IMG/VR virus record: IMGVR_UViG_3300027808_002535
Span: 1-64,000 of that record
DNA length: 64,000 bases
From: a virus
Taxonomy: Duplodnaviria > Caudoviricetes
Reading direction: 5' to 3' (one strand)
Shown: in pieces, positions 1,680 to 58,427 of the stretch
Numbering within the stretch: the first letter of the stretch is position 1
How the letters are laid out: every line of letters begins with the position of its first letter
Translations under genes and position numbers: made by a program
Notes under the pieces: model-generated
What the model was told of the DNA's origin: nothing
Seen by the model: the letters and a program-made list of their open reading frames with translations, nothing else
The model's database searches: none

Positions 1680-2462
1680 ATGATATTAAATGAGGGCGGA
1701 GATGTATTTGCAGACACCGAAGAATATGACCAAAAAGAAGCCACCGCTTTACAGGCTGTTGTAGATAAGGAATTATCTTCTATGGGTCTATCATCCGTTA
1801 TGATTGGCAGCGGCTTTCATCCGACTCCAGGGCAAATGAGCGGAGACTTAGATCTACAAATAGAATTACAAGATATCATTGATCGTTTCGATGTACAACC
1901 TGACCCCACTGTTAAAAAAGATACTATAGAAAATGCTGCCCGCAGAACGCTGGCAGCACATCTACAAAGTAAAGGATATCAAACAAAACGAGCGGGTATA
2001 AATGTTTTTATGCGTGTTCCTTATCAAGGTAAGTTTTATCAAGTAGACTTGGAATGTATATACAAAGTAGCAAAAGTAAGCAAATATCATCAGCATAAAA
2101 TTCCTCAAGGTAGCACATACAAAGGAGTGGGCAAACAAATAATGATATCTATGTTGGCCAAAGAAAAAAATATGATGTGGAGTGGTTGGGAAGGTTTATT
2201 CCAACGTACTCCCGATAATAAAAAAGGCGACATGGTCGCCGATGACTTTGATGATATAGCAAAAGTATTACTTGGGCCGCAATACGGTGAAGAAGATTTA
2301 GGCAGTGTAGAATCTATATTGGCTGCGCTACCAAGTGCAAAAGCACAAGATTTATTGGCCAGAGCCAAGGCCGACAAAGCATGGAGAGAACGTGCGCCAC
2401 GTGTAGAAAGTCTGCGTGTTGGCACCAATGAATGGTTCCGTAATATGTTAAACAAATTATGA
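1680..2462 (+). CDS. Pol-beta-like nucleotidyltransferase, putative internal head protein
   Basis: IGSG...SGDLDL motif plus later QVDL acidic residue; N-terminus MILNE-GG resembles a prohead-protease site. Confidence 0.55.
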   Translation: MILNEGGDVFADTEEYDQKEATALQAVVDKELSSMGLSSVMIGSGFHPTPGQMSGDLDLQIELQDIIDRFDVQPDPTVKKDTIENAARRTLAAHLQSKGYQTKRAGINVFMRVPYQGKFYQVDLECIYKVAKVSKYHQHKIPQGSTYKGVGKQIMISMLAKEKNMMWSGWEGLFQRTPDNKKGDMVADDFDDIAKVLLGPQYGEEDLGSVESILAALPSAKAQDLLARAKADKAWRERAPRVESLRVGTNEWFRNMLNKL

Positions 2463-3118
2463 AAATAAACGACATTTTACGTGAGTACGATCGAGACTCT
2501 GCCAATAGTAAACAAATTATAGCAAAATTAAAACAGCTAGGGTACAAGAGTGTTGGCAGCGGCTATGATGCAACTGTATGGACCAAAGAAGAAGGCAGTG
2601 TTATTAAAATCATCATGCCGCAGGAGTTGTCTCGAGCAGAAGGAGACGCATCGTTTTTAGGGTTTTATGAGTTTTATACCACACATAAGAAGTCGCCATT
2701 CCTGCCAAGATTTATCAGCATTGGTGGCGCCGATCATACTGTGTTTACACTGAATGGAGTAGACTATAGACAAATATCAATGGAGAATCTTGAGCCCATT
2801 GTCAATAACAGCTTTATGGAACAGATGGTATGGGCACTCAGCGATTTGTCCATTATACCTTTTATGAAATGGAGAGACGCTAAAGAGCAACTGCTTGACT
2901 CTGAGTTTTGGACAAATTTTGAAGGACCGGGCAGAGAAAGCGACATCGTAAAAGGACTAAGTAATTCAGCAGTAGAGAAAATGTATGCAAGTTTATTTGC
3001 AGTAATGCAAGAGCTTTTTCAATTTGGAAAAAGTCAAGGACTGGGTTGGGATTTACACACTGAAAATGTCATGCGTCGTGGCGACACACCAGTTATCACT
3101 GACCCGTTTACCGGATAA
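2459..3118 (+). CDS. Protein-kinase-like fold enzyme
   Basis: VGSGYDATV Gly loop, VIKI lysine, DLHTENVM catalytic loop, VITDP. Confidence 0.7.
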   Translation: MKINDILREYDRDSANSKQIIAKLKQLGYKSVGSGYDATVWTKEEGSVIKIIMPQELSRAEGDASFLGFYEFYTTHKKSPFLPRFISIGGADHTVFTLNGVDYRQISMENLEPIVNNSFMEQMVWALSDLSIIPFMKWRDAKEQLLDSEFWTNFEGPGRESDIVKGLSNSAVEKMYASLFAVMQELFQFGKSQGLGWDLHTENVMRRGDTPVITDPFTG

Positions 3119-3122
3119 TAGT

Positions 3123-3551
3123 ATGCTAATTAAAGAATTAACAGAAAACGAAGAGACAACAAGAATCAAACTAGCTGACAATTCGGCCGCCAAGTCTTGG
3201 ATTCAAAAAGTCTATGATTTATATCCGCAACAGTTTCAAAACAATCACGTCATGCCCATGGGTGGTCAAGGCGATGATCAACAGTTTGCCATGTTTGAAC
3301 TTGTTCCAAGTTTTAGCAAACGTGGCGCAGTGGAAGTAAAATGGTTTCAAGCATATCCGCTACGTGCAGGAGTAGGCAGTCGTGCCATGAAAGAATTACA
3401 GAGCTTGGCCAGTGAAGATGGTATTGCACTTACATTATTCCCATGGGATAAAGGACAAGTCAGTCAAAGTAAGCTAACCAAGTTCTACCGAGGTCGGGGA
3501 TTTAAGCCCGCTGTCAAAGGCAGCAAAAGTATGCAATGGAGTCCTGAATGA
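3123..3551 (+). CDS. GNAT-family acetyltransferase
   Basis: RAGVGSRAM (motif A) and LTKFYRGRGF (motif B); start taken at MLIKEL. Confidence 0.7.
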   Translation: MLIKELTENEETTRIKLADNSAAKSWIQKVYDLYPQQFQNNHVMPMGGQGDDQQFAMFELVPSFSKRGAVEVKWFQAYPLRAGVGSRAMKELQSLASEDGIALTLFPWDKGQVSQSKLTKFYRGRGFKPAVKGSKSMQWSPE

Positions 3552-4696
3552 GATTATTGGAACTAAAAGAATTAATGGAAGCAGTGGATCCCAAGCTGGG
3601 TCGTGCTTTTAATCACTTAGAGGATCTTGTATTCTTCTATGGCAGTGCTGGTACCATTGAAGCATTGGAACATTTAAAAGATATGAACACAGAACAAGGT
3701 AGTGGCAGTGTGCGTATGAAGTGGGATGGTAATCCTCAAATCTATTGGGGGCGTGAGCGTGGTGTATTTGTTCCTCCGCATGGTCATAATCAGTGGAGTC
3801 GACGTGCAAAGCCTGCTAATCCAACGGATGTATCAGACTTTATTATGTCTAGTGGTAAAGCGGTTACTCCAGAAGAGGTTGCAGGCCGTCAGCAGTTTGC
3901 AGATAAGTTTGCTAGCTTGGCAACATTGTTTGAACCGGGTACTCCCAAAGATTTAGATGGTAACAGTACATTTTATGTATATGCTGATTCTCTATTTTTA
4001 AGTCCACCGGAGTTAGTGGATGGTGTTTATAGTTTCCATCCTAATCCAAAAAGTCAAACAACATATCATGTGCGAGCAGACAGTGATCTAGGACGTAGAA
4101 TTGCAGGTGCAGAAGTTATGGTTGTTGGCCATGCTTACTTTACTGAACACGGTGCTCCAGATTCGGCACAGATTCCCATCAAAGACTTTACAATGTTTAA
4201 TGCTAATCCAAAATTAATTGTATTAGGCCCTATATACAATGTAGCACCGGTTCAAGTTGATAATAGTATGATATCGCAAGTAGAGAATCACATCAAGCAA
4301 CATGCCAAGCAAGTTGATACATTCTTACAAGGTGTACCCGGATTAAGTGACTTAAAGCAGATCATTTATAACTATGTAAATCAAAGTGCAAAAGCAAAAC
4401 AGTTAGATAATTTAAGCACACCGCATTTCTTTCAATGGATGACCAGTAAAGTCAGTGTGCCAAAACAAGCAAAGATCAAAGAATTAGATTCAGCACAGAA
4501 CAATGTATTAGAAGAAATATTTAAAATTGTTCGTGCTGTACAAATATTAAAAGACCATGTCATTGACCAAATTGAAGCAGGACCAAAAGCAGATATCTGG
4601 GATACAAATGGCGAAGGCCGTGTGCGTTATGCAGATGGCAATAAACAATTCGGCAACGTGAAGTTTGTACCGAGAAAAAGGTGGACACCAGGATGA
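3548..4696 (+). CDS. Conserved phage protein with KWDG motif (DUF6267-like; possible RNA-ligase-type nucleotidyltransferase)
   Basis: HLEDL, MKWDG (KxDG adenylation-like motif), GEGRV and KFVPR near the C-terminus. Confidence 0.55.
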   Translation: MRLLELKELMEAVDPKLGRAFNHLEDLVFFYGSAGTIEALEHLKDMNTEQGSGSVRMKWDGNPQIYWGRERGVFVPPHGHNQWSRRAKPANPTDVSDFIMSSGKAVTPEEVAGRQQFADKFASLATLFEPGTPKDLDGNSTFYVYADSLFLSPPELVDGVYSFHPNPKSQTTYHVRADSDLGRRIAGAEVMVVGHAYFTEHGAPDSAQIPIKDFTMFNANPKLIVLGPIYNVAPVQVDNSMISQVENHIKQHAKQVDTFLQGVPGLSDLKQIIYNYVNQSAKAKQLDNLSTPHFFQWMTSKVSVPKQAKIKELDSAQNNVLEEIFKIVRAVQILKDHVIDQIEAGPKADIWDTNGEGRVRYADGNKQFGNVKFVPRKRWTPG

Positions 4697-6453
4697 AAAT
4701 AAATCAAGTATTAGTAGAATCAACAGGTGCCACAGTGGCATTTGCCTTTGGCAGATTTAATCCTGCACATCAAGGACACATAGAAGTATGGCGCACAGTG
4801 GAACAAGCTGGCGCAAATTGGTTCATTGGAACTAATGCCACTACTCTTGGTCCTAACGATCCACTGACCTTTGAGCAAAAGTCTGCTTGGATGACGGAGA
4901 TATATCCCGCCATTCAAGGACATATTGTAGCACAGACCAGCGTATTGACATTGGCAGCTTATATCTTTAAGAAGACACGTAAAAATGAACGTGCCACAGT
5001 TGCGTATATCACCGATGCCGCTGACTGGGCTTGGAGTGGTAAATTATTAAATCAATACAATGGTGTAGAAGGTGCTCACGGTTATTATAAGTTTGCACAA
5101 ATCATTCATGAGCCAAGTCCCCGTGTAAGTAGTGCCACAGCATTGCGTGATGCGGCTCGTGCTGATGACAGAGTTGCGTTCTATCACGCCAGTGGCACAG
5201 ATCCTAAATCAAAGGTCGCAGGACTAACATACTTTGACACAGTTAAACAAGCAGTTGAGAAATATCCATTACCAGTTAAACGTGTTAAGAAGGTTAAAGA
5301 GCAAGGTGTGGCGGAAGGTGATGTTTTGCCATTTAAACGTCCTGGATTAATGCAACAATTAAAAAAATTAGTTATACCAAATAAAGAAAAATCGCCAACA
5401 AAAAAACAATCTCCTGTATATAATCCAAAAGAATTTAGAAATGACGAACCCAAAGAAGGTGTGGCGGAAGGCTCGGATACAGAAACTAACTATGATGGCA
5501 ACTTATTAGTGTCATTGATACAGAATTATACTCCACAAAGTTATGCTGGCGATCAAATCAAACAAGATCTCAGTGACCCTGCCTCATTGCCCTTTCACCT
5601 GGCCGATGTAGTTGGCTTGATAGATGAAATATTTTATGAATCTTTGGAAAATGGCAGCGAAGGTGTTGTTCTCCCTGATGAGAAACAAGACTTGAGATTT
5701 TTCTATCAGGCGGCTAAGAAATCTCAAAAGCAAGGCATGGCGGAAGAACAACAAACAGTAGCCAAGACTTGGGATCAAATGACAAGTCAAGAGAAACTAA
5801 GTGGTGTTAAAGGTCGCACAGTATGGAATGAAAAGACACAGAGATACTATACAGTATTTGATGTTCCTACAAAACAAGAAACAGATGAAGGCTGGCTTAA
5901 AAATACTGCCGCAGGCCTTGCTTTAGGGGCAGCCGCCATTGGTGGTGCGCAGGCCGGCACTTCTATGGATGATCCTAGTTGGCATTCAGGTCAATACGCA
6001 AGTCATGTAAAATCTGATCAAACTATACAAAAACAAACAGGAAGCCCTTCTGTCAATCAAAAGAGAATTTCAGATGTTACTGGACCAAATGCTGATGGCG
6101 AATATCGTATAACAGTAACACAAAATGGAAAAATTGCCAGTCAATATATAACTAAAACGCCACCACCCGATTGGATGATGAAAGAACAAGATTTGGACGA
6201 AGCAAGTTTAGCAACTATGCGTGATTACTTTGCTGGTGATCTAAATGCTCAAGATCCTACCACATTGGCAAAACAACGTACTTGGTTTGATAAAAACAAA
6301 GATAAAAACGGGCGACCCACTGTAGATAAAAGATTTAGAAGTCCGGAACAATTTCAACTATGGTTAAAACAAAACAAATTAAAACAGATTTCCAGTGCCA
6401 ATGAATCTACAAATGACAAAGGTTGGTCTTTGACTAACAAGAAACAACAATGA
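4693..6453 (+). CDS. HxGH cytidylyl/nucleotidyltransferase-like domain fused to a mosaic C-terminal tail
   Basis: FGRFNPAHQGH and VSSATALR motifs; C-terminal segments separated by GVAEG/GMAEE linkers. Confidence 0.75.
   Translation: MKINQVLVESTGATVAFAFGRFNPAHQGHIEVWRTVEQAGANWFIGTNATTLGPNDPLTFEQKSAWMTEIYPAIQGHIVAQTSVLTLAAYIFKKTRKNERATVAYITDAADWAWSGKLLNQYNGVEGAHGYYKFAQIIHEPSPRVSSATALRDAARADDRVAFYHASGTDPKSKVAGLTYFDTVKQAVEKYPLPVKRVKKVKEQGVAEGDVLPFKRPGLMQQLKKLVIPNKEKSPTKKQSPVYNPKEFRNDEPKEGVAEGSDTETNYDGNLLVSLIQNYTPQSYAGDQIKQDLSDPASLPFHLADVVGLIDEIFYESLENGSEGVVLPDEKQDLRFFYQAAKKSQKQGMAEEQQTVAKTWDQMTSQEKLSGVKGRTVWNEKTQRYYTVFDVPTKQETDEGWLKNTAAGLALGAAAIGGAQAGTSMDDPSWHSGQYASHVKSDQTIQKQTGSPSVNQKRISDVTGPNADGEYRITVTQNGKIASQYITKTPPPDWMMKEQDLDEASLATMRDYFAGDLNAQDPTTLAKQRTWFDKNKDKNGRPTVDKRFRSPEQFQLWLKQNKLKQISSANESTNDKGWSLTNKKQQ
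5302..5318 (+). repeat. QGVAE linker repeat, copy 1
   Basis: CAAGGTGTGGCGGAAGG. Confidence 0.85.
5455..5471 (+). repeat. QGVAE linker repeat, copy 2
   Basis: GAAGGTGTGGCGGAAGG. Confidence 0.85.
5731..5747 (+). repeat. QGMAE linker repeat, copy 3
   Basis: CAAGGCATGGCGGAAGA. Confidence 0.85.
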
Positions 6454-6707
6454 GACGAGTAAATCAAACTTATACAACTATTGATGTTATCGTAGACGAT
6501 TACGATGAAACAATCATTGCCAAGTTAAAACAACGTTATCCTGCTTTATCTATAGCAAGAGTAAATGCCACTAGATTTAATAAAGATTCAACTAACTTGT
6601 TAAAGTTTTATATATATCATTGGCTACACAATGATTACAAAACTGTGATCTTTGATATACATAATTATTACAATAAATATAAGATTACAACGAAAGTCGT
6701 ATCATGA
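6450..6707 (+). CDS. Hypothetical protein
   Basis: 85 aa ORF with ATGA overlaps at both ends. Confidence 0.5.
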   Translation: MRRVNQTYTTIDVIVDDYDETIIAKLKQRYPALSIARVNATRFNKDSTNLLKFYIYHWLHNDYKTVIFDIHNYYNKYKITTKVVS

Positions 6708-9364
6708 AATACTTAGAACTAAAAGAACAATTACTCAACGAAATAAACATGAGCCCCAGTGCTCTACGTCGTGCTGCCAAAGATATCGGCGCCAAGGCAG
6801 GCATGGAATTTGAAATGATTGTTCCGGGTGCTGCCGAAAGTGATGAAGGTGATGACTACCAAGAACCAGACTACGAACAAGATGAAAGCGTTCGCAGTAT
6901 TCAAGATGCCTATGATTTCTTCTACGATGGTGATTTTAATAGTCGTAGAGATGCAGAACGCCTACGTGATCAAATGACAGATAACTATACTGATTGGCTG
7001 GGCACTCAATCTGGAGATCGATGGGAATCAGATAAAGAAGAAATGATATATGATTGGCTGCGCTATAATGCCGCGCCCAGCGATGTATTTGGTATACTAG
7101 AAGTAGCTGCCAGCGCCAGCGGAGATTATCCTGATCCCTCTAAAGAAGATTACAGAAATGCTGCCGCCAAAGTCTCAGAAGATAGAATAGATCCATGGTA
7201 TGACGATGCTTATCAAGATTTTACTAACAATTTCTACAGAGATGCAGACATGGAAAGTGAATGGCTCGAACATGAAGCTATGGAAAGTATGGTTGACGTG
7301 GAACAGAATTATAACATTGTTTGGCCACATTATCATAATCCAGATACCAGCGGAGGTGACGTTAGTATACAAGATGCCGCTGATAGTTTTAGTCGTGCCA
7401 TTGGTAAAGAAGTACAAGCCAGCGACAATTATCACAGCCGTAGTATAACAAGACCCAGTGCCACAGAATTACACTATGTTGTAGAACCTGATGGCAGTTT
7501 AGAAGCAGATGAGTCCGGAGACGGCGGCTTAGAATTTGTCAGTCCAGCATTGCCCATTGATGAATTATTGGATGACTTGAAAAAAGTTAAAGCATGGGCA
7601 GATAAGTTTGGCTGTTATACAAATGACAGCACGGGCTTACACATCAATGTCAGTGTTCCAGCTTGGCAGGGTGACTTACAAAACTTAGATTATGTCAAAC
7701 TTGCTATTCTAATGGGCGACGAATATGTTTTAGAAAACTTTGGTCGCAGTGGTAACACTTATGCCAAAAGCGCATTAAAGATTGTTAAAGATAATATCAC
7801 ACAGCGTCCAGAAGATGTCAAACGTTTGTTAGACACTATGAAAGAGCACTTAAACACCAGTGCCGCAAAATTAATACACAGTGGCAGCACAAGCAAGTAT
7901 ACCAGTGTTAATACCAAAGACGGATATATCGAATTCCGTAGTCCAGGCGGCGATTGGTTAAACAGTAACTTTGACAAGATTGAAACAACATTGTTGCGTT
8001 TTGTTGTTGCCATGGATGCTGCCGCAGACGAAACAAAATACAAAGAAGAATACGCCAAGAAACTTTATAAGTTATTAGCAGGCAATGACAAAGATACTAC
8101 AAATACCATGGTTTATTTTGCCAAGTATGCCGCAGGTGAATTACCTCAAAGTGCATTGAAGAGTTTTATTAAACAAGCACAGTTTGAACGTAAGGCAGGC
8201 AAAGAACCCAACGGTAAGAAAATGTGGTATCGTGTTGATTTGAATGGCCGTGGAAAGAGTGGTGCCAGCGTTGAAGTTGTTGCTACATCAAAAGAAGAAG
8301 CATTACAAAAAGCAGCCAGTAGCTGGAACCAGAAATTAAGTGCATTAGCCGCTGCCGCTGTTTATCCAGTTCGCCCATTTGACGATAATGCTGACAACTG
8401 GGAAGTATATGACGGAAATACCGGAAATACACTGGGTACATTTAAAAGTGCAGACGCCGATGGAACAATGGACAACTATGATGCAACTAGCGCAGATTAT
8501 AGAAGCTGGCGTTATGCCAATGGTATTAGTAACACTTCTTCAGTGAACTTATATCGTCGTCCTAGATTTGACAAGAACCGTTATGAATTGTTTAACTTGG
8601 ATAGAAATAGAAGATTGTCATCTCCGGTTCCTATAGATGTTACAACAGATGAACAAGCACTGACTTTCTTAGATGATTATATTAATCACGGCCCGCATGA
8701 ACTACAACCAAGCCAAGCAAAACGTATGTTTGGTATAAGACGTTGGGGTGATTCTGTTGCTGAACCTATACTAGCAAATCCATTCCGTGCCACAGCAGGT
8801 GAGCCACAACCAGCTGGTAGTGTCGGTACAGTACCTTTAGCACGTGAACCCTTACCTAGTAGACTCATGACGCCTTTTGTTTGGAGGGTTTTCGGATCAA
8901 ATGATTCTCCATATCAAAGACAGGGTGTAGAAGTTGTTGCTTTTGATGAATTTGAAGCGATGCAACAAGTTAGACGTGAATGGAATTTAAACACAAATGG
9001 GGCAACTGAAGCAGAGTTTTTTAGAGCTAATGGATGGCGTGCAACTCCTGATCGTCCTGCTAGTTCAGGAAGGCCTGGCGCTGTAAGACCTATTCCCGGC
9101 GTTATTGATATTGAGCCTGATATAGAACAGAACTTTACACCTGTACCAGGTAGCACAACAGACTTACAGCAACAACGTGCAACACCTGGTACGTTTACAG
9201 GTGCTTGGAAAGTAATGAATGTCGACACTGGACAAGAATTATATAGATTCAGCGGCATTGGTAATTCGCAGTCAGATGCTAATGGTGTCGCTTTACAATG
9301 GATAAGACAACATGCCCCGAACACAGACTTGGTACAAATTGAAGTTGTGCCCATAATGAGCTAA
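6704..9364 (+). CDS. Putative amidoligase (COOH-NH2 ligase-type) with acidic insertion and repeated C-terminal modules
   Basis: GMEFE, EPDGSL, GLEFVSP, STGLHINVS, KY.SVN and YIEFRSPGG motifs. Confidence 0.75.
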   Translation: MKYLELKEQLLNEINMSPSALRRAAKDIGAKAGMEFEMIVPGAAESDEGDDYQEPDYEQDESVRSIQDAYDFFYDGDFNSRRDAERLRDQMTDNYTDWLGTQSGDRWESDKEEMIYDWLRYNAAPSDVFGILEVAASASGDYPDPSKEDYRNAAAKVSEDRIDPWYDDAYQDFTNNFYRDADMESEWLEHEAMESMVDVEQNYNIVWPHYHNPDTSGGDVSIQDAADSFSRAIGKEVQASDNYHSRSITRPSATELHYVVEPDGSLEADESGDGGLEFVSPALPIDELLDDLKKVKAWADKFGCYTNDSTGLHINVSVPAWQGDLQNLDYVKLAILMGDEYVLENFGRSGNTYAKSALKIVKDNITQRPEDVKRLLDTMKEHLNTSAAKLIHSGSTSKYTSVNTKDGYIEFRSPGGDWLNSNFDKIETTLLRFVVAMDAAADETKYKEEYAKKLYKLLAGNDKDTTNTMVYFAKYAAGELPQSALKSFIKQAQFERKAGKEPNGKKMWYRVDLNGRGKSGASVEVVATSKEEALQKAASSWNQKLSALAAAAVYPVRPFDDNADNWEVYDGNTGNTLGTFKSADADGTMDNYDATSADYRSWRYANGISNTSSVNLYRRPRFDKNRYELFNLDRNRRLSSPVPIDVTTDEQALTFLDDYINHGPHELQPSQAKRMFGIRRWGDSVAEPILANPFRATAGEPQPAGSVGTVPLAREPLPSRLMTPFVWRVFGSNDSPYQRQGVEVVAFDEFEAMQQVRREWNLNTNGATEAEFFRANGWRATPDRPASSGRPGAVRPIPGVIDIEPDIEQNFTPVPGSTTDLQQQRATPGTFTGAWKVMNVDTGQELYRFSGIGNSQSDANGVALQWIRQHAPNTDLVQIEVVPIMS

Positions 9365-9365
9365 T

Positions 9366-11741
9366 ATGAGACTACTAGAATTAAAAGAAGACAAATCATA
9401 TCAGCCGCCTAGCATTGATGTGGGCGATGAAGTTCTTGTGGGCAAGTTTAAAAATCGCAGAGCAGAAGTTAAAGGGTTTACAACTGATGACAATAATCAG
9501 CCTGTGCTAAAAACTTCCAAAGGTGATCAACATTTATTCAAGCCACGTATCGCTAAACTCATGCCCACGGATGTCAATGAAGATTCCGGTAACAGCCTTC
9601 AAACTATTATTCAATCCTTTGTCAATAGTCCTATAGGACAAAAATACAAACAACACGATTGTAAAACTGTGACCAGAGCATTTGTACGATGGGCAGAACA
9701 AAATAAAATTCCAACGCAGGTAGTTTCATTGGCTCCTCCCAGTGCTGATTTTATTGCCAAGAATCCACAGTTCCAAAGTAAGAAAGGTAAGCCTGGCCAG
9801 GGCAATGGCCACATCATGCCCATAGTGAATGGCAGTGCCATTGACTTCACTGTTAGACAATTTGGTGTGAAAAGACCTTTTGAAAATCCATTAGTAACGT
9901 CAACGTCAATTAATAGTCTGCAATCAGTATACGGCAAATTTGGATATTTTACAGACAACCCCAACTGGTTTCCAGGAGGCAAGTCTCATTGGATTGGTGC
10001 ATTGAACGCAATACCACCAGCAATCTTTAATCAAAATTTTGGCGATGAAATACTAGAGCATACCATGGCAGAAGGCTTGGATGAAGATGCCGTTCGAGCA
10101 GAAGCACAAGCAGCCTACATGCAAGGACAATGCATGATATTGGCCGTTGCTATAAATCAACTCAATCCTAAAAGATATCCAATAGGCTATATATGGGAAT
10201 ACAACGCCGATGCAGGCGTACCGGACATGCAACTGGATGATGACGAGTGGGAAAATCTAAATCCACAAGAACAAGAAGAAATCTCAAAAGATATCAGCCG
10301 CCACTCGATAGTACATGCCTATGTACGTGATAGAGATACCAACGAATACATAGATGCACGTGGTCGTCACAGAGATATACCGAATTTGTGGGGCAGACTA
10401 GGTGTCACACGATTTGAAGAATTTCCAGGTACGGCTCGTGAGTTGATAGACATAACAGTAAACGGAGAATGGGATGAAGTTGGTGAACAGGTCAATTTCA
10501 AACGTGGTCAACCTGCGTTTGATTCCATGGCAGGACCTGCTGGTGTTAAACAAGCACAAGACTATTCTGTAAAATATTTGAATATAGATCCGGGTCCAGC
10601 ATCACAATCGACACTGAAAAAGCCCGTCTGGATGAATCCAGGAGATCCGTTGCCACCCAGTAGCCCAAATGGCACTTGGGTCATTCTAGGGCCTTATAAA
10701 AATGTTTTATACAGATTTTCCGCTAGCAATGAACAACGAGCCAGTGCTATGAAAGATCAGTGGTGCAAAGAAAATAACATAGATCCTGATTCTAATCGTT
10801 TTTGTAGATTGAAGTATGATGGTAATGTTCTCCTGGGTCAGCCCATCAAGAAACAAGGCATGGCGGAAGCTAGAAATAGTTTATTTGCTTTTGTGAAGCA
10901 ACAGTTTCCAACTTGGCCTGATTATGTATTGAAAGACTTCTTATATGCACAAGCCAAGGGCATCCGTGACCAAGCAGAGTTAGATGATTTTCTAAAAAGA
11001 AATAAACAAGATTTTGGTAATTGTAAATGGACACTGACTAAACTGCCTATAACATTTGATATCTTTACACCAAAGACTCAGCGTATGCTTGCTAGTCGAG
11101 AAGGCGGTAGTTCCAATCCTTTTCAAGTGCCGCGTGATGCTGAAAGACACGCACTACAATCACAAATGATTCAGCAAAAGGGTGTGAGTGCAGAACCAAT
11201 TATTGTTGCTAAATTATCAAACGGTTATGATTTGATTGAAGGTTGGCATAGAACTATTCAGCATCTAAAAACATTTCCTGAAGGATACACAGGCCCTGCT
11301 TGGGTCTGCACTGGAGCCACATACAAAAGTGAAAGCGTAGAACAAGGTGTGGCAGAAAACTTCGCAGACGGTCGAGTAAAAGGTAAAAGCAGTCCTGGAC
11401 GTGTAAAACGTAGCGGTGCAAGCTGTGACGGAAGTGTATCTGATCTAAGATCAAAAGCAAAAAATGCAAGTGGTGAACGTGCTAAGATGTATCACTGGTG
11501 CGCTAATATGAAAAACGGCAGAGCAGATGAATCTGGGATGTTAGAAGGTTTAAATGCTCTATGGAAAAATATATTAGAAGCGGGCGTATTCAAAGGCTAT
11601 CCTTGTACCAAGGATTGTAGTGGGCATGCCGCTGGATATAAGTGGTCCGATGACAGAGATATTACAGATCCTAACTTATGTCCCTACAGTAATAACAGTT
11701 TCTGGGAAGGCTGTTTAGCTCACACCGATGAACAAGAATAA
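9366..11741 (+). CDS. Mosaic polyprotein: two putative Cys-His-Asp (papain/transglutaminase-like) modules, a ParB/Srx-like module and small Cys-containing modules
   Basis: DCK..GH..IDF; GQC..VHA..YID; PIIV..LIEGWHR; modules separated by MAEG/QGMAE/QGVAE. Confidence 0.55.
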   Translation: MRLLELKEDKSYQPPSIDVGDEVLVGKFKNRRAEVKGFTTDDNNQPVLKTSKGDQHLFKPRIAKLMPTDVNEDSGNSLQTIIQSFVNSPIGQKYKQHDCKTVTRAFVRWAEQNKIPTQVVSLAPPSADFIAKNPQFQSKKGKPGQGNGHIMPIVNGSAIDFTVRQFGVKRPFENPLVTSTSINSLQSVYGKFGYFTDNPNWFPGGKSHWIGALNAIPPAIFNQNFGDEILEHTMAEGLDEDAVRAEAQAAYMQGQCMILAVAINQLNPKRYPIGYIWEYNADAGVPDMQLDDDEWENLNPQEQEEISKDISRHSIVHAYVRDRDTNEYIDARGRHRDIPNLWGRLGVTRFEEFPGTARELIDITVNGEWDEVGEQVNFKRGQPAFDSMAGPAGVKQAQDYSVKYLNIDPGPASQSTLKKPVWMNPGDPLPPSSPNGTWVILGPYKNVLYRFSASNEQRASAMKDQWCKENNIDPDSNRFCRLKYDGNVLLGQPIKKQGMAEARNSLFAFVKQQFPTWPDYVLKDFLYAQAKGIRDQAELDDFLKRNKQDFGNCKWTLTKLPITFDIFTPKTQRMLASREGGSSNPFQVPRDAERHALQSQMIQQKGVSAEPIIVAKLSNGYDLIEGWHRTIQHLKTFPEGYTGPAWVCTGATYKSESVEQGVAENFADGRVKGKSSPGRVKRSGASCDGSVSDLRSKAKNASGERAKMYHWCANMKNGRADESGMLEGLNALWKNILEAGVFKGYPCTKDCSGHAAGYKWSDDRDITDPNLCPYSNNSFWEGCLAHTDEQE
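10059..10075 (+). repeat. Degenerate MAEG linker repeat, copy 4
   Basis: CATACCATGGCAGAAGG. Confidence 0.55.
10854..10870 (+). repeat. QGMAE linker repeat, copy 5
   Basis: CAAGGCATGGCGGAAGC. Confidence 0.85.
11343..11359 (+). repeat. QGVAE linker repeat, copy 6
   Basis: CAAGGTGTGGCAGAAAA. Confidence 0.8.
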
Positions 11742-11758
11742 AGAATAAATATACTATT

Positions 11759-13195
11759 ATGCGATTATTAGAACTTAAAAATTTATTAGAAGGTCCGAAC
11801 TTAGCTCCGTCAGAGTTGATTAAACCTAACAGCAGGACAAATGTACCTAGGATAGATATATTTGCCAGGAAAGTCACTGCCGGCGAGCCATTTCCAACAG
11901 TAGACGGACGATCAGTAATTATTGACAAAACAGAAATTAAACGTATTAGAGATTTAATGGCGCAAGGTCAGTTTGGCGGTAAAACAATTTCAGTTAACAC
12001 TGATCAAGGGCCAATATCATTATCCAATCTAAAGAAAACCGGAGAGTTTGGTGCGTTGGCCGGCGATGTTGCAGATAAGATTGGCAATAGAGGTGATATA
12101 TCTGAGGGTATTCTTGGCGCGGCATTATTTGCTAAAATGCGAGCAAGAGTTAATGGAAAAATTAAAACTATCGCTCCTGGTGATATTTGGGGAGTTATTG
12201 ATAGTTTACAATTACAAAAAACTGTTAGAGGTAAAGATAAAGAAGATACCTGGGGTGAATACACTGTTAAAGTAAAAGATGTTAACCAAGCAACTGTTAA
12301 AGACAGTATTGTCTTCACATTAAAATTAAAAGAAGGTCCATTCAAAGAAATTATGGATACTACAAAACGACCTTTATTGAATAAAGAAATTAGTGGCGCT
12401 GTAGAGTATGCAAATAGTGCAGATGCAGAAGAATTTGCTTCTTTCTTTTATTTAAATGGTAAACCTGATATTATTCATGTTATCACTGATGGCTTGAGTG
12501 ATCAGACAGGTAAGAAGTCTGACATTGAAGTTGTTGTCACTGATCCTAAAACTGGCAAGCAACACGAACAACGACTTAATATTAGTCTTAAAGCAGGCAG
12601 TGATCAAATTGCACAAGTGGGCGGCGGTACAACTATTGCCGATGATACCAAGGGCAGGACTGCATTTGAAGCTCAAGATGAATTATGGAGTAAATTAGGT
12701 ATTGATGTTGTACCTTTTAAAGAAGAATTTGAATCAATGACTGCAAAATCTAATTACGATTCTTTCATGGGTGCATTTCAATTTATGTACCACGAAGTCA
12801 CTGATTTGCTACGTAGTTTATTAAGCGGCAATTACGACGATGAAGAATATTTATATGTCAGCGATTTTATCAAGGCTATTAATTATTTTGCTACTTTAGG
12901 AAATCCTAATATTGTGTTAATTAACTTGGAAAAAGGTAGCTACTCTATTTCCAGCTTTGCCAACTTAGAATCACAGTTACAAGATATAGATCTTGATGCA
13001 AGATATGTAGAACAAGATGAATCAGGATTACCTATTGTAGAAGTATTTGACGCTAACAGCGGACAATTATTCCTAAGAATAAGATCATATCGTAAAAGCA
13101 AAGTTTCAAAGTCTGGCGAAGAGGGTTGGTACTTTAGAAACTACATTGAAACTGGTCCATTATTAAAGCAGTTAACTAGTATTAAGAAAAAATAA
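11759..13195 (+). CDS. Putative PD-(D/E)xK restriction-like nuclease, putative internal head protein
   Basis: GDISEG helix, then KSDIEV...ISLKAG; MRLLELK leader; TAAATA at 11746. Confidence 0.45.
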   Translation: MRLLELKNLLEGPNLAPSELIKPNSRTNVPRIDIFARKVTAGEPFPTVDGRSVIIDKTEIKRIRDLMAQGQFGGKTISVNTDQGPISLSNLKKTGEFGALAGDVADKIGNRGDISEGILGAALFAKMRARVNGKIKTIAPGDIWGVIDSLQLQKTVRGKDKEDTWGEYTVKVKDVNQATVKDSIVFTLKLKEGPFKEIMDTTKRPLLNKEISGAVEYANSADAEEFASFFYLNGKPDIIHVITDGLSDQTGKKSDIEVVVTDPKTGKQHEQRLNISLKAGSDQIAQVGGGTTIADDTKGRTAFEAQDELWSKLGIDVVPFKEEFESMTAKSNYDSFMGAFQFMYHEVTDLLRSLLSGNYDDEEYLYVSDFIKAINYFATLGNPNIVLINLEKGSYSISSFANLESQLQDIDLDARYVEQDESGLPIVEVFDANSGQLFLRIRSYRKSKVSKSGEEGWYFRNYIETGPLLKQLTSIKKK

Positions 13196-13231
13196 TACGT
13201 TATATTGACACAAATTGGCATAAATAAACAT

Positions 13232-13441
13232 ATGAAAATAAAAGAACTTATCAGCGAAGACGGCAGCGTTGGCGGCATTAGCAGTGGTGCTGTAGCTTCT
13301 GCTCCAGCCAGCAATTTATTTGCTGTGCCCATGAAACGCAACATGGCAATGACTCGCAAGCGTCCTAAAAAGGAAGCTGAAGAATTTAAAACTAAAAAAG
13401 ATAAGTCTAATGTTTTAGAAAATGGAAATAACAATGGATAA
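13232..13441 (+). CDS. Small putative internal head protein
   Basis: MKIKELISE leader, Gly/Ser/Ala stretch, basic C-terminus; TAAATA at 13221. Confidence 0.6.
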   Translation: MKIKELISEDGSVGGISSGAVASAPASNLFAVPMKRNMAMTRKRPKKEAEEFKTKKDKSNVLENGNNNG

Positions 13442-14339
13442 GCAAAGAGCCCGACAACTTTATGAACTAGCAGATCGTTTAAGCAAGTTAGACGTTAATA
13501 CTCTTTCAGAAGAACAACATCAACAACGTAATACAATGATTGCCAAGCTACAAGAAGAAGTTAAAACAATTAAAGAGTTTGCTCCTGACGATGGTTCAGG
13601 TGGTGAAGAAGATACATTACACAAATATGCCAGAATGTGGTATAATGGTAATGAAGCTACACAACAACAAGTTGAAAAAATATTAGACCGTATGGGTTGG
13701 GAAATCGGCGAATTAGAATCAGAAGAAGGCGGTGCCTTTGTTGTACAATCAGGTGACGAAAATGGTAATAGTTATATTGGCTTTGCAGTCGCTGATTTGT
13801 CAGAAGGTATTACTGATAATAAAGACTCTGGCGAATATGATCAAGAAGGCGATATGGCTCGACAAGATCTTGCCACTGCCGCTGATGCTGCCAGCGAACT
13901 ACGCAGTATATTAACCAGCGATGAGAACTTGCCAGAATGGGTTCAATCAAAGATTACTAAAGCAGTTGACTATTTAGATACTGTTCGTGATTATATGAAA
14001 AGCAAAGATCAAGATGTAACAGAAGCTTCACAGCGAGTTGATTCACTGGTCACTGACGCATTAAAAATAATGCGTGGTTCATCAATGAATGATGCTGTAC
14101 TAGCATTAAAAACTGTGCTTGGTGATAGAGAATACAATGGCCGTCGCGGTCATTACAATTTCTATGTTAGACAAATCATGGATATGTCGGGTCAGCAAGG
14201 TGTGGCGGAAGCAAAAAGGCCAAGCCCAAAACTTACGCCGGTTAATATTAAAAAATCTGACCAAGTCAGCGAAGAAATAAATACAGAAGCATACGAAAGA
14301 CTACAAAAGGTTTTCGCATTTAAGAATTACGAAAGTTAA
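13434..14339 (+). CDS. Acidic mosaic protein (prohead core/internal-protein-like)
   Basis: EYDQEGDMA..LPEWVQSKITKA motif; QDVTEA and QQGVAEA linkers. Confidence 0.6.
   Translation: MDKQRARQLYELADRLSKLDVNTLSEEQHQQRNTMIAKLQEEVKTIKEFAPDDGSGGEEDTLHKYARMWYNGNEATQQQVEKILDRMGWEIGELESEEGGAFVVQSGDENGNSYIGFAVADLSEGITDNKDSGEYDQEGDMARQDLATAADAASELRSILTSDENLPEWVQSKITKAVDYLDTVRDYMKSKDQDVTEASQRVDSLVTDALKIMRGSSMNDAVLALKTVLGDREYNGRRGHYNFYVRQIMDMSGQQGVAEAKRPSPKLTPVNIKKSDQVSEEINTEAYERLQKVFAFKNYES
14196..14212 (+). repeat. QGVAE linker repeat, copy 7
   Basis: CAAGGTGTGGCGGAAGC. Confidence 0.85.
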
Positions 14340-14341
14340 TT

Positions 14342-15841
14342 ATGAAACTATTTGAACTATATCAACAAAATACCCTACAAGGTACAAATAACTTAAAACA
14401 GATCTCTGAAGCTGTTACCAATAAAACAGGTGCAGTTATTACTGTAGGTAACACTCAAGTTAAACTGGGCATTAACAGTGCTAGGTACGTTCTTGGTTTA
14501 TATGAAACCGCAGTTGCCAATGGCACCAGCGAACAATTCTTAGAAGGCCTGGCCAATCTAAATCCAACAATGGTCATGGAAAACGATAACACAATGCGTC
14601 ACATTGTCAGCAAGTTCAAGCACGAAGTTAAAAACTTCTTAGCTGGACAAGAACTAAGCGATGACTTATATCATGCATTGTTTGATTACTACAGCGACCA
14701 TGGTGAAATGCCGTATGGTGTACAAAAAGCTCGAGACGGTGATCCATATGAATGGGTTCACATGCGCTTTGACCGTGACGTTCATGACTATGCTGGCGGC
14801 GGCAATCCTGATATTCCTGCATTACCAACAGCAACAATGCCCAGTATGCCACGTCAAGAAAGCATGTACGAAGCATCTACTATAAATGGTCGAGTACGAG
14901 ATCCTAAAGAACTAGTTTGGAAACAAACTAGCATGAGCTATGAAGAAGCTGTAGAAAAATATGGTAAAGACAAAGTCAGAAAAGAAGGTAAAAATCGTAT
15001 AGGCAACGAAGTAATTGCAGTACATGTTCCGCTGGGGGAAAGCAGTATGTACGAATCTAAAAAAACAAAAATGAAAGAAGGTTGGGACGAGATGATGGCC
15101 GGCGTCAAAGCCAGTGCTGAACAAGAAAAAGGTGCTACTGGTAAGTTTTCTAGATCAAAAAATCCCGATTCAGGCGGAACAGTTTATAGCCGAAAATATA
15201 ATTCAGACACTGGTCAAACCATTGAGCCAACTAAAGATCCAGAAGGCAAATCTCCGGTCAAACGTAGCGTAGGCCGTCCCAATGCTGGGGTTACAGGCTC
15301 GGATGAAGCAGGTACTAAATTCGGTGATTATTCTAGCTGGTATCATAAATCTAAACGCACACACGGCGATCGTAAAATTGTTGGCGGTAGAACTGGTGCT
15401 ATGGCAGTTACTGAAAAAGGTAAAAAATATTTAGTAGTCGGTAAGTGGGAAAATGACGAAGGTGTTATGTTTGATAAACCCAGTGAATTGGTTACATTAG
15501 ATGCATTGAAATCTTACAAAAGCGGCAAAGGCCGTCCAAAGAAAGTTCGTGAATGGATTGAAACTCTGCGTTTCGTCTCCGAAGGTGTAGCTGGTCCTAA
15601 AAATTGTTGGCCTGGCCATAGAAAAGTTGGCACACAACCCGGCACAGGCAAGAATGCAGGCAAGCGTGTCAACGACTGCGAAAAGATCGGTGAAGATTTA
15701 GACGCTGATCAAAAGCGTGTAGGACAAGTTGGCGGCGAAGAACGAGCAAAGAAGATTGGCACAGTATTAGGCACAAGTCCCAAGCAACATCCTTTCAAAG
15801 GACGTTTAGTAGGCGAAGATTTAGAAAAGAATAGTAAATAA
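14342..15841 (+). CDS. Mosaic putative internal head protein with AT-hook-like GRP motifs
   Basis: MKLFEL leader; ESMYE and SSMYE repeats; RSVGRPN and GKGRPKK; CWPGHRKVG..NDC motif. Confidence 0.6.
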   Translation: MKLFELYQQNTLQGTNNLKQISEAVTNKTGAVITVGNTQVKLGINSARYVLGLYETAVANGTSEQFLEGLANLNPTMVMENDNTMRHIVSKFKHEVKNFLAGQELSDDLYHALFDYYSDHGEMPYGVQKARDGDPYEWVHMRFDRDVHDYAGGGNPDIPALPTATMPSMPRQESMYEASTINGRVRDPKELVWKQTSMSYEEAVEKYGKDKVRKEGKNRIGNEVIAVHVPLGESSMYESKKTKMKEGWDEMMAGVKASAEQEKGATGKFSRSKNPDSGGTVYSRKYNSDTGQTIEPTKDPEGKSPVKRSVGRPNAGVTGSDEAGTKFGDYSSWYHKSKRTHGDRKIVGGRTGAMAVTEKGKKYLVVGKWENDEGVMFDKPSELVTLDALKSYKSGKGRPKKVREWIETLRFVSEGVAGPKNCWPGHRKVGTQPGTGKNAGKRVNDCEKIGEDLDADQKRVGQVGGEERAKKIGTVLGTSPKQHPFKGRLVGEDLEKNSK

Positions 15842-15856: not shown

Positions 15857-16297
15857 ATGGATGAATTAGTACAAGCAATGAAAAAGTCACTGGCAGATAC
15901 ATTTGCCTTTTATTTAAAAGCACAGGGCTTTCACTGGAACGTTGAAGGTCCTAATTTTCCACAATATCACGCATTGTTTGATACTATATACAACGAAGTC
16001 TACGGAAGTATAGATCAGTTTGCAGAAGAAATTCGTTCCTTGGATGCTTATGCTCCTGCTAGTTTTGCTCGCTTCAGTGAACTAACTAGTTTAGACGATG
16101 AAATACAAATTCTTAATGCACAAGGTATGTTAGCAAAATTATTAGCAGACAACGATGTTGTATTGTCTAGTCTTGAGCAAGCATATGAATTAGCAGAAGT
16201 TGCACACAATCATGGACTAAGCAACTTCTTAGCTGAACGTCAAGACGCACATAAAAAACATGCTTGGCAATTAAAAGCAACTCTAAAACAAAGATAA
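15857..16297 (+). CDS. dps: Dps / ferritin-like DNA protection protein
   Basis: FHWNVEGPNFPQYH..F, DQFAEEIR ferroxidase signature, KKHAWQL C-terminus. Confidence 0.92.
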   Translation: MDELVQAMKKSLADTFAFYLKAQGFHWNVEGPNFPQYHALFDTIYNEVYGSIDQFAEEIRSLDAYAPASFARFSELTSLDDEIQILNAQGMLAKLLADNDVVLSSLEQAYELAEVAHNHGLSNFLAERQDAHKKHAWQLKATLKQR

Positions 16298-25754: not shown

Positions 25755-26847
25755 AATATTTTTAGTTGATTTAGAAGCAGTTAGCACCCGCTATACTGGA
25801 CAGTGGAAAGATCACGTTCCGCAATTACTTAAAGAGGCAGGACACGATGTTCAAGTTATCTCTGGCCCTACGGATATTCCTGGTGCCACTACTCCTGGTG
25901 CTTTCCTTAATTTTGGTGGTACCAATATTTATAAGTCTGCACAAGTGGAGCAGATGGGCCGTTTATTTTGTGACGGAGCAGTTCATGCAGGCGATCACTT
26001 TATCTTTACTGATGCTTGGCATCCAGGTATTATAAATTTAAAATATATGAGTGAGTTGCTGGGCATTCCAGTAGTCACACACGGACTATGGCACGCCGGT
26101 AGTTATGATCCGCAAGACTTTTTAGGACGTTTAGTTGGTAATAAGCCTTGGGTACGTAATGCAGAGAAATCATTCTTTTCAGCGTTTGATCACAATTATT
26201 TTGCCACAGACTTTCATATAGAAATGTTTAATAGAGAACTATTGAACAACGGGCATACTGTAGAAAATCCATGGTATGAAGAAGAACTAGACGAAATCCT
26301 AAGCGGAGAGTATTCTAAGTTTGTACGTACAGGTTGGCCCATGGAGTATATGGAAGATACACTCGCTCCATTCAAAGGTATGACCAAACGTGATCTTATT
26401 TTGTTTCCACATCGTATCGCTCCTGAGAAACAAGTTGAAATCTTTCGTGATTTAAAAACACATTTGCCACAATATGAATTTGTAGTATGTCAAGATAAGC
26501 AACTTACTAAAGATGAATATCACACATTGTTAGGCCAAGCCAAGATGGTATTCAGTGCTAACTTGCAGGAAACATTGGGTATCAGTTGTTATGAAGGTGC
26601 AGTAGTAAACGCAATCCCCATGGTGCCAGATAGACTTAGTTATACAGAAATGTATTACGACACATTTAAGTATCCAAGTGAATGGACTGAGAGTTTCGAA
26701 TCATATGACAAACATCGACCTAATTTATGTTTTGCAATTATGCAACATATGGATCATTATGAACATCGTTTACCGCAACTCCAACAGCAAACAGAAGACC
26801 TGACCAAGTATTTTTTTAGTGCAGATATTTTGTTAAAAAATTTATAA
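25747..26847 (+). CDS. GT-B fold glycosyltransferase (GT4-like)
   Basis: FPHRIAPEKQ, QETLGIS.YEG, PMVPDRLSYTE motifs. Confidence 0.8.
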   Translation: MSKIFLVDLEAVSTRYTGQWKDHVPQLLKEAGHDVQVISGPTDIPGATTPGAFLNFGGTNIYKSAQVEQMGRLFCDGAVHAGDHFIFTDAWHPGIINLKYMSELLGIPVVTHGLWHAGSYDPQDFLGRLVGNKPWVRNAEKSFFSAFDHNYFATDFHIEMFNRELLNNGHTVENPWYEEELDEILSGEYSKFVRTGWPMEYMEDTLAPFKGMTKRDLILFPHRIAPEKQVEIFRDLKTHLPQYEFVVCQDKQLTKDEYHTLLGQAKMVFSANLQETLGISCYEGAVVNAIPMVPDRLSYTEMYYDTFKYPSEWTESFESYDKHRPNLCFAIMQHMDHYEHRLPQLQQQTEDLTKYFFSADILLKNL

Positions 26848-26852
26848 TGTTT
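26796..26852 (+). repeat. Direct repeat copy 1 (glycosyltransferase 3' end plus desaturase start)
   Basis: AGACCTGACCAAGTATTTTTTTAGTGCAGATATTTTGTTAAAAAATTTATAATGTTT. Confidence 0.8.
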
Positions 26853-27287
26853 GTTATTTATTTTTTACTCTGGACATTAGTATTATATTGGATACACCGT
26901 GTTGCTCACGTTTTTCCATATCTAAAAGATATTCATAAAGAACATCATAGATATGTTATAAGGAATAAAGGATCCGGAATAGCATTAAGACATTTATTGT
27001 TAATCCATAAATCTAAAGATTACACTATAGATTTATGGATTACTGAGGTCGTACCTACTATCCTGTTTTCATTAGTAACAGGACAAGTATGGATATTAAT
27101 TGTTTATTATATTTGGGCGGCACTGTTTCAAACATCAGTAAAATATGATGTAAATTTTGATATTTTTCCTATCACATGGGGAGCCTGGACGTTGCTTCAT
27201 TATAGACATAATTCAAATAATTTCGGAAGCATATTTACTATATGGGATAGACTTTTTAAAACTAATAAAGGTATAAATCAACTGTGA
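26847..27287 (+). CDS. Sterol desaturase/fatty-acid hydroxylase-like membrane protein with partly degenerate His boxes
   Basis: YWIHRVAH, HKEHH, LHYRH, NFG..FTIWDRLF. Confidence 0.75.
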   Translation: MFVIYFLLWTLVLYWIHRVAHVFPYLKDIHKEHHRYVIRNKGSGIALRHLLLIHKSKDYTIDLWITEVVPTILFSLVTGQVWILIVYYIWAALFQTSVKYDVNFDIFPITWGAWTLLHYRHNSNNFGSIFTIWDRLFKTNKGINQL

Positions 27288-27340
27288 TTAAAATACAAAA
27301 TTATAAGTCGAGTCCAGGATGTATCAAAATGGTTCTAGAT

Positions 27341-27395
27341 AGACATGACCAAGTATTTCTAGTGCAGATATTTTGTTAAATAATATATAATGTTT
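27341..27395 (+). repeat. Direct repeat copy 2
   Basis: AGACATGACCAAGTATTTCTAGTGCAGATATTTTGTTAAATAATATATAATGTTT. Confidence 0.8.
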
Positions 27396-27827
27396 ATTTT
27401 ATACTTCTTTTCATGGACTTTTATGTTATACTGGGTACATCGTATTGCACACAAAGTTACACATGTTAAGAACTGGCACTGGGATCACCACAGCTATATA
27501 GTTAGACATGGAATGCAGGGATGGCATTGGAATAATTTATTTTTATTTAATGATACTTGGACTAGTACATTGGATTTATATGTAACTGAAGTAATACCAA
27601 CTTTGTTGTTTAGTTGGTTAACGGGTCAGTGGTGGATTTTTATCTTGTATTATGTATGGGCGGCTGTGCTTCAAGAAAGTCTGGAACATAATAAAAATAT
27701 AAACTTTTCTTTATTGACATCAGGCAAATGGCATTTAATACATCATCGACATCCTAATAAAAATTACGGATTATTTTTCCCAATATGGGATATATTATTT
27801 AGAACGCATAAACATGTGGACCAGTGA
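27390..27827 (+). CDS. Sterol desaturase/fatty-acid hydroxylase family
   Basis: YWVHRIAH, HWDHH, EHN, WHLIHH, NYG.FFPIWD.LFRT. Confidence 0.85.
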   Translation: MFILYFFSWTFMLYWVHRIAHKVTHVKNWHWDHHSYIVRHGMQGWHWNNLFLFNDTWTSTLDLYVTEVIPTLLFSWLTGQWWIFILYYVWAAVLQESLEHNKNINFSLLTSGKWHLIHHRHPNKNYGLFFPIWDILFRTHKHVDQ

Positions 27828-58424: not shown

Positions 58425-58427
58425 TAA

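Follow-up and report, generated by a model that had tools for sequence, protein, structure and literature searches.

A short DNA word of 17-18 nucleotides (nt), translated as the peptide linker QGVAE or QGMAE, joins unrelated protein modules in three genes of an uncultured virus and marks the positions at which related phages have gained, lost, swapped and re-ordered these modules. The DNA analyzed here, referred to as the window, is the first 64 kb (64,000 nt) of the 74,911-base IMG/VR virus record IMGVR_UViG_3300027808_002535. The linker has the consensus (K/E/Q)-Q-G-(V/M)-A-E-G, with the predicted cut before the last Gly, and is encoded as CAAGGTGTGGCGGAAGGC or, in the Met allele, as CAAGGCATGGCGGAAG. 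Comparison with related viral contigs showed that the word is a real module boundary and crossover point. We favor the reading that it probably has two uses, as a predicted cut site of the head protease and as a crossover joint for in-frame module exchange.

The window contains five exact copies of CAAGGYRTGGCRGAA (positions 5302, 5731, 10854, 11343 and 14196), compared with a mean of 0.01 in 100 dinucleotide-preserving shuffles, none of which ever reached five. Two further copies are degenerate, with one mismatch at 5455 and three at 10059, and a variant with three mismatches lies at 14010. No additional copy with up to one mismatch occurs in the whole 74,911-base record, and none lies on the minus strand. 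All seven copies are on the plus strand and in frame, following the pattern (Q/E/T)-(G/T)-(V/M)-A-E, within the open reading frames (ORFs) 4681/4693-6453, 9366-11741 and 13422-14339. They read QGVAE (5302, 11343, 14196), EGVAE (5455), QGMAE (5731, 10854) and HTMAE (10059), the variant at 14010 reading QDVTE. The sequences flanking the copies are unrelated on both sides. A match with two mismatches at 11419 is out of frame and was dismissed as a chance occurrence.

To locate module boundaries we relied on the ends of blastn high-scoring segment pairs (HSPs) between the window and three related IMG/VR loci, L095, L088 and L093 (L-numbers denote IMG/VR loci throughout). Thirteen of the 71 ends lie on a copy of the word (within 3 nt), compared with 0.94 expected (P-value 1e-11), and they span five of the seven copies. 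At the remaining two copies, contigs from other lake runs have joints or loose ends, and protein matches have their ends there. All seven copies are a module boundary in some comparison. Protein matches to relatives also start and stop at linkers, extending over residues 490/497-664/666 and 659/664-791 of ORF 9366 and over residues 1-203/209 and 351-402 of ORF 4693. Each precursor ORF holds three to five independently shuffled modules.

The four-module precursor (4693..6453, plus strand; listed GTG start at 4681) begins with the leader MKINQVLVE, which resembles a capsid-targeting sequence (CTS), and is composed of modules M1 (4693-5316), M2 (5317-5469, 51 amino acids (aa)), M3 (5470-5745, 92 aa) and M4 (5746-6450). 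Copy 1 (5302..5319, CAAGGTGTGGCGGAAGGT, QGVAE-G; exact and in frame) joins the nucleotidyltransferase-like M1 to M2, and the homology to the three relatives stops at 5317/5318. Copy 2 (5455..5472, GAAGGTGTGGCGGAAGGC, EGVAE-G; one mismatch, in frame) lies between M2 and M3, where contigs from other lake runs start or lose their match at 5456/5460. Between M3 and M4 is copy 3, an exact Met allele (5731..5748, CAAGGCATGGCGGAAGAA, QGMAE-E), at which homology to the three relatives begins (5743/5745) and from which a contig of run X11 joins position 5746 to 10855.

The second precursor (9366..11741, plus strand; leader MRLLELKE) comprises M1 (9366-10073), M2 (10074-10868), M3 (10869-11357), M4a (11358-11522; basic, isoelectric point (pI) 10.5) and M4b (11523-11738). 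Copy 4 (10059..10073, CATACCATGGCAGAA, HTMAE-G; degenerate, with three mismatches), where L095 homology stops at 10073, and copy 6 (11343..11357, CAAGGTGTGGCAGAA, QGVAE-N; exact), where homology to L095, L088 and L093 begins at 11348/11350, form the left and right ends of a two-module insert, the latter standing before the basic NFADG..HWCANM module. Copy 5, an exact Met allele (10854..10871, CAAGGCATGGCGGAAGCT, QGMAE-A), separates M2 from M3, and protein matches to L008-L013 begin there at residues 490-497. In the orthologue from L014 and L095, which is without M2 and M3, HTM(T)E is joined straight to NFADG, and the L095 joint is a chimera of the window copies at 10059 and 11343. The window thus carries a two-module insert of 1,284 nt. 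L009 has M3 and M2 in reversed order, with M3 first, L014 contains a tandem GVAEGVAE, and the module ARNSLFAFVK...SESVEQGVAE is followed by six different downstream partners.

In the three-module precursor (13422..14339, plus strand; M1 13422-14024, M2 14025-14210, M3 14211-14336) the decayed variant (14010..14024, CAAGATGTAACAGAA, QDVTE-A; three mismatches) stands upstream of M2, a module of 62 aa. In L026, L031 and L106 this module follows the canonical QGVAEG. Copy 7 (14196..14210, CAAGGTGTGGCGGAA, QGVAE-A; exact) is the site of a 453-nt insert of extra modules in L095: the HSPs stop at 14211 and resume at 14196, which places the word at both ends of the insert.

Contigs from four other lake runs, assembled with k = 31 and hence with words longer than the linker word, contain further joints of this kind. 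The joint 10065>11350 occurs in runs X11 and X15 with eight shared letters, and a contig of run X5 (10851>11341, seven shared letters) skips M3 of ORF 9366 from motif to motif. There is also a back-joint, 11338>10066, and loose ends fall at 5456/5460, 5746, 10855, 10869, 11357 and 14212. Four joints with one side of only 21 letters (5318>14190, 5320>14190, 5477>14192 and 11264>14193) were set aside because they probably reflect the word itself matching another copy. Differences in depth between bins are not interpretable for contigs. The word is a crossover point for the gain, loss, swap and re-ordering of modules among related phages.

Synonymous positions of the word are conserved beyond codon usage. 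In the window Val is encoded by GTG in all four copies that contain it, compared with 12% usage in the genome (P-value approximately 2e-4), and Ala by GCG in five of seven, compared with 6-7.5% (P-value approximately 1e-5); CAA for Gln and GAA for Glu are simply common codons (P-values 0.24-0.42). We extended this analysis to 90 related loci (1.32 Mb) that were fetched with two of the proteins, in which the strict pattern has 47 occurrences, all of them on the gene strand. These loci were collapsed to 93 distinct junctions, each with different upstream and downstream neighbors. Across these junctions, Gly is GGT in 77 of 93, Val is GTG in 64 of 77, Ala is GCG in 67 of 93 and Glu is GAA in 88 of 93, with GGC at the next Gly in 43. 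The conservation is confined to 18 nt (positions -3 to +14) and stops abruptly beyond them. The Gly codon co-varies with the Val/Met alternative, the combinations GGT-GTG, GGC-ATG, GGT-ATG and GGC-GTG being found 62, 12, 3 and 0 times, respectively (P-value 1e-11, Fisher test), which is not predicted by a constraint on the peptide but is predicted by descent through copying. As an internal control we used the leader MRLLELKE, common to neighboring genes, whose peptide is conserved while its Leu codons vary. The word has no inverted repeat and is not self-complementary.

The exact 17-mer CAAGGTGTGGCGGAAGG has at least 162 matches across IMG/VR contigs, in at least 130 loci besides the window. 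All matches listed read QGVAEG in open frames, and they form at least 156 distinct junctions. Their spacings within loci are multiples of three in 32 of 32 cases, and the frame is open for approximately 100 codons on either side of the word. In six of the matches listed (L125, L148, L157, L162, L212 and L230) the linker is followed by a stop codon within 1-11 codons; such 'empty' terminal linkers could be docking points or remnants of deletions.

These results bear out all of the sequence features that an earlier note on this DNA had described. Its seven in-frame copies in three ORFs with unrelated flanks, its silent-site conservation and its two co-varying alleles were all recovered, and the QDVTE variant that it had paired with copy 7 does bracket a mobile module. 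The scan of related contigs that it proposed returned the word in frame, and its expectations that breakpoints of module gain and loss would fall at the repeat and that orthologues would differ in module order agree with the 13 HSP ends on copies and with the architectures of L009, L014 and L095.

Several features of the encoded proteins point to a role in the head. The linkers end in VAE or MAE, which fits the hydrophobic-x-Glu rule of the T4 gp21-type (Peptidase S77) prohead proteases. According to reviews, T4 internal proteins are loaded by CTS leaders of 10-19 residues, and the cuts made by gp21 and by its relatives in giant phages follow the Glu of a short motif (PMC9026906, PMC5694885). 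A plus-strand gene block (1680..15841) is rich in leaders of the pattern M-[KR]-x-x-[EDQN]-[LFIVM], with leader starts at 2459, 3548, 4693, 6704, 9366, 11759 and 14342: seven of its ten ORFs carry one, compared with 2 of 82 elsewhere in the record (P-value 5e-7, Fisher test). The leader resembles, as a likeness of pattern only, the T4 CTS printed in PMC8442874. Peptidase_S77 (PF03420) is encoded by all five of the long near-complete relatives.

The most informative module in this respect is NFADG..HWCANM (11358-11522; 55 aa, pI 10.5). It has matches in more than 594 IMG/VR viral stretches, in many different precursors, and none in 50,697 isolate phage records. In 61 distinct contexts the residue directly before it is Glu in 61, and P3 is V, I, L, M or F in 54, compared with a background of 24%. 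Five of these contexts have the leader MRA(S/K/Q)EF(I/V)TE directly before the module, and relatives also carry it as a very small gene in its own right, headed by a CTS-like leader. The module may be a DNA-associated internal protein. Since the linkers end in hydrophobic-x-Glu, the leaders are CTS-like and this module always starts after such a site, cleavage of the linkers by a gp21-type protease is predicted and receives indirect support, and a role as prohead-protease sites in capsid-targeted precursors seems well motivated. The peptide rule is loose, with many P4-P2 combinations before the same module, and so the protease cannot force a single 17-mer at more than 150 junctions.

Under the mechanism that we propose, the CTS-like N-terminal leader would bring multi-module precursors into the prohead, where an S77-type protease would cut them after hydrophobic-x-Glu into separate modules. 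The general recombination machinery of the phage would cross over within the shared 17-18-nt word, each event recreating one intact linker. Copies would be born canonical, either through a crossover in the word or through the import of a linker together with its module, and would then drift. Copying of linker and module would result in identical silent positions at more than 150 unrelated junctions, followed by decay of the copies. Homology-guided recombination is our best inference as to why the DNA is conserved. Three of four near-complete relatives carry a RecA/UvsX-like gene.

A number of observations weigh against this reading. Orthologous copies decay at silent and replacement sites alike (PIVAE, QGVVE, QGVTE, HTMTE, QDVTE), which makes strong purifying selection on the DNA word unlikely; its uniformity would then rest on turnover. 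Among the five long protease-bearing relatives the canonical word is rare, with 0-5 copies per 289-355 kb. The other 58 of the 71 breakpoints are located elsewhere than the word, and many junctions carry other x-x-Glu sequences, so that the word is not required for exchange. The contigs from other runs include joints off the word (7559>8105, 8821>9104 and 13861>13938) and many loose ends besides, and they were matched at 88% likeness, meaning that the arrangements they display are those of related phages and do not document rearrangement inside a single population. For homologous recombination a stretch of 17-18 nt is short, and the five records searched yielded no dedicated recombinase. Peptidase_S77 was found in none of five records comprising this one and four closer fragments, all of them 17-40% complete. 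Finally, the T4 late-promoter word TATAAATA has four matches compared with 7.3 expected, none of them before the block, which leaves late expression unsupported.

Part of this evidence would also fit a linker that matters only as a peptide, whether cleavable or flexible. Modules would then be joined by random illegitimate recombination, selection would retain the in-frame products with intact domains, and nucleotide identity would be hitch-hiking from a recent common linker ancestor, with no mechanistic role for the DNA word. The decay of orthologous copies in the manner of neutral sequence, the breakpoints off the word, the unrelated x-x-Glu sequences at other junctions and the failure to find a recombinase in five records are in its favor. 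We nevertheless consider it unlikely. Random joining should produce partial, doubled or missing linkers, whereas one intact word is seen per junction, and the crossovers fall inside seven to eight shared letters. Moreover, the exact 17-mer recurs at 156 or more distinct junctions although the loose protease rule does not force such identity.

We judge it still less probable that the word is selected as a nucleic acid, either as a G-tract element, GG-N3-GG-N1-GG-N2-GG, possibly forming a two-layer quadruplex, or as another linear signal for recombination or for ribosome pausing at domain ends. It is true that the rare codons GTG and GCG are exactly those that make GG across codon borders, that the two alleles differ only in the first 'loop', and that only 112 of the 1,024 synonymous versions, the canonical one included, have four GG tracts. 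However, only 55 of the 93 junctions and two of the seven window copies have them, GGT for Gly and GAA for Glu do not maximize G, the copies decay in orthologues, and a conserved RNA helix is impossible with unrelated flanks. Its pairing with an E. coli-type 16S 3' end is unremarkable, at rank 708 among 1,024 synonymous versions, and a Shine-Dalgarno-like pause site was rejected on this ground. The (A/G)TG of the linker could in principle provide an internal translation start from which each module would also be made alone, given that GTG and its alternative ATG are both start codons and that AAGG lies just upstream. This we rejected as very improbable, as Val is encoded by GTA or GTT in 13 of 77 linkers, AAGG lies one base from the codon and is thus too near for a ribosome-binding site, anti-Shine-Dalgarno pairing is below the average of synonymous variants, and where these modules occur at other junctions the position is taken by codons for Leu, Ile or other residues.

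A different objection concerns the head rather than the DNA. The linker might join domains of cytoplasmic proteins that are never processed or are processed by a different phage protease, such as the DUF2201 metallopeptidase-vWA protein (46593-47816) with its MoxR-type ATPase. The S77 gene was indeed not found in this 17%-complete record, the metallopeptidase-vWA/AAA pair is present in the window, zincin-like peptidases have been proposed for the processing of polyvalent proteins (Iyer et al. 2017, PMC5512222, in its available text), and no late-promoter signal was found. Against this, the hydrophobic-x-Glu rule at junctions and the T4-CTS-like leaders point to the S77 system, the S77 protease is encoded by five of five long relatives, and the NFADG..HWCANM module is also found in a small gene of its own, immediately after a leader; we therefore regard cytoplasmic proteins as an improbable destination. 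The MoxR-type AAA ATPase adjoins the DUF2201 metallopeptidase-vWA protein at 45105-47816, and the pair is a possible alternative processing protease.

Returning to the reading of the word as both protease site and crossover joint, the closest parallel for the peptide is the head cargo of T4. Like IPI-III and Alt of T4, the precursors have a short N-terminal leader of the same pattern (T4 CTS in PMC8442874) and variable, non-essential-looking cargo, and an S77 protease is found in relatives of this phage. The T4 proteins are cut after Glu in a short motif, as the accessible portions of PMC9026906 and PMC5694885 describe, and the linkers fit that motif by sequence alone. The T4 cargo consists of single units cut once behind the leader, whereas here unrelated modules are chained in one ORF by repeated internal linkers that look like cut sites and are additionally conserved as DNA. 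In the giant phages phiKZ, 201phi2-1 and SPN3US the targets of a gp21-related protease likewise include many head and ejection proteins, which it cuts behind the Glu of a three-residue motif. That motif has Ala, Ser or Gly at P3 and removes propeptides, and the available text of the papers (PMC5694885, PMC9026906) contains no report of it as a joint that recurs between exchangeable modules, nor of its conservation at the DNA level.

For the DNA, the nearest parallel is the PeSL (early promoter and stem-loop) cassette. In PeSLs, too, a short conserved element is repeated between variable units. PeSL cassettes of T4-type phages are reportedly treated by Comeau et al. 2014, and Repoila et al. 1994 is said in citing papers to have described PeSL-like elements at the internal protein (IP) loci of T-even phages. 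Units are inserted, deleted and replaced by crossovers inside the element and without a dedicated integrase, according to the available text of Arbiol et al. 2010 (PMC2839356). PeSLs, as presented there, are intergenic, combine a promoter with a stem-loop terminator and move whole genes, whereas the present word, 17-18 nt in length, is a translated part of ORFs, preserves their frame and moves protein domains. Mini-circles have been reported for PeSLs, and none were seen for this word.

Polyvalent proteins combine disparate domains in one polypeptide, as the precursors with their mostly unassigned modules may also do, and share with them a predicted entry into the host with the DNA and a predicted proteolytic processing, as far as the available text of Iyer et al. 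(2017, PMC5512222) goes. There, peptidase domains (MPTase, assemblin-like) are proposed within the polypeptide, whereas Pfam (E <= 0.1) detected no peptidase family in the three precursors; the word 'linker' is absent from the main text of PMC5512222, in which neither a stereotyped linker nor a DNA-level joint is described. We found no published description of the linker in the literature searched, supplements not being covered.

Integron gene cassettes, too, form a series of exchangeable units with a copy of a recombination-prone site at the border of each, and the earlier note had called the system an integron-like array of injected effectors. The tyrosine recombinase family PF00589, to which IntI belongs, was detected in none of five records, two of them at least 97% complete, while the control was positive in 14 of 14 genomes. 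The word is not an attC-like imperfect inverted repeat, the units are domains in one frame and not promoterless genes, and no excised circles were seen. Because the recombinase was not found and the word is not attC-like, 'integron-like' can be kept as an analogy only. Nor are 'virion' and 'injected effectors' supported as stated: most modules have no recognizable function by Pfam, PDB or ESM Atlas, and a virion location and an effector role are putative. The part of the note that concerned module boundaries and crossover is thus sustained by the breakpoint and silent-site tests, and its integron-like and injected-effector parts are not, the former in view of the PF00589 test.

A broader picture can be put forward tentatively, and we would not yet bet on it. 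The word may form a recombinase-free in-frame cassette system, in which a single 17-18-nt sequence is the homology patch for domain exchange between co-infecting jumbo phages and also the protease site that frees the domains in the capsid. Exchange may pass via circles of linker plus module, and a clade of lake phages may share and re-deal a pool of packaged, host-directed mini-proteins. Here, the principle of T4 head cargo and that of gene-shuffling cassettes appear to have merged at the scale of protein domains, with a single translated word that both separates and exchanges modules. If this is true, it would show how giant phages diversify the proteins that are delivered with their DNA. Leader, linker and hydrophobic-x-Glu rule together would then give a sequence handle on such cargo in metagenomes, and the arrangement would offer a natural way to fill T4-type capsids with several proteins encoded by one gene. 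It is also a rare case in which silent-site conservation inside genes can be linked to a role in recombination, one that lends itself to testing by recoding.

The source of the DNA was assessed from its polymerase and its occurrence. The record has a completeness of 17% (CheckV) and a G+C content of 38%. Its family-B DNA polymerase is nearest, among isolates, to those of Sinorhizobium phage Phosso (49%), Agrobacterium phage Atu_ph07 (46%) and Rak2-like jumbo phages (approximately 42%), and five uncultured viral records of 289-355 kb encode polymerases with 57-59% identity to it. The stretch 4681-14400 is present in 20 freshwater or lake runs from 16 studies, and the hosts are probably bacteria of fresh water. 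From these polymerase affinities and this occurrence the window is identified, at the level of sequence, as part of the genome of an uncultured jumbo phage from fresh water that belongs to the T4-related group (T4/Atu_ph07/Rak2-like). Megablast of 4681-15841 against 50,697 phage records gave no match, and tblastn with the last modules of ORF 9366 gave none against isolate phages.

Few modules resemble known proteins. At E <= 0.1 the only Pfam match among 12 module pieces was the borderline, weak cytidylyltransferase-like match of M1 of ORF 4693 (E 4e-4). For module M3, neither a PDB sequence search nor ESM Atlas returned a named relative; it has a ParB-like look (GWHR) by eye only, which we do not claim as an assignment.

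Other genes in and around the leader-bearing block deserve mention. ORF 3548-4696 bears a leader and matches DUF6267 (E 2.6e-15), and its MKWDG resembles, by eye only, the KxDG nucleotidyl-transfer motif of ligases. The leader-bearing ORF 6704-9364 (886 residues) contains an Amidoligase_2 domain (E 1e-7), and a single SVAE site lies at its residue 685. Relatives differ in the C-terminal part of this ORF, with breakpoints at 8385, 8675 and 8826. Directly before the block, the 5'-truncated ORF 3-1568 contains repeated segments of the type WTFGTDGDLT(L/A)P, has no Pfam or PHROG match and looks like a fiber or repeat protein. Directly downstream of the block, 15857-16297 encodes a Dps/ferritin-like protein (E 1e-23) without a leader.

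Farther along the window are several genes of metabolic type. Two tandem paralogues of the fatty-acid-hydroxylase family (26847-27827) lie amid sugar-nucleotide-type enzymes (GFO_IDH_MocA, ADH_N, UDP-glucose dehydrogenase), and GTP cyclohydrolase I and ThyX are encoded at 30000-30854 and 50201-51085, respectively. Two neighboring genes on the minus strand (36780-38687) encode TctC-family periplasmic solute-binding-like proteins. The region 49504-63309, mostly on the minus strand and continuing to approximately 72 kb of the record, holds at least nine radical-SAM ORFs, a density that is unusual for a phage; it includes a protein of 850 residues with two radical-SAM stretches and a SPASM domain, as well as an Asp/Arg beta-hydroxylase-like ORF.

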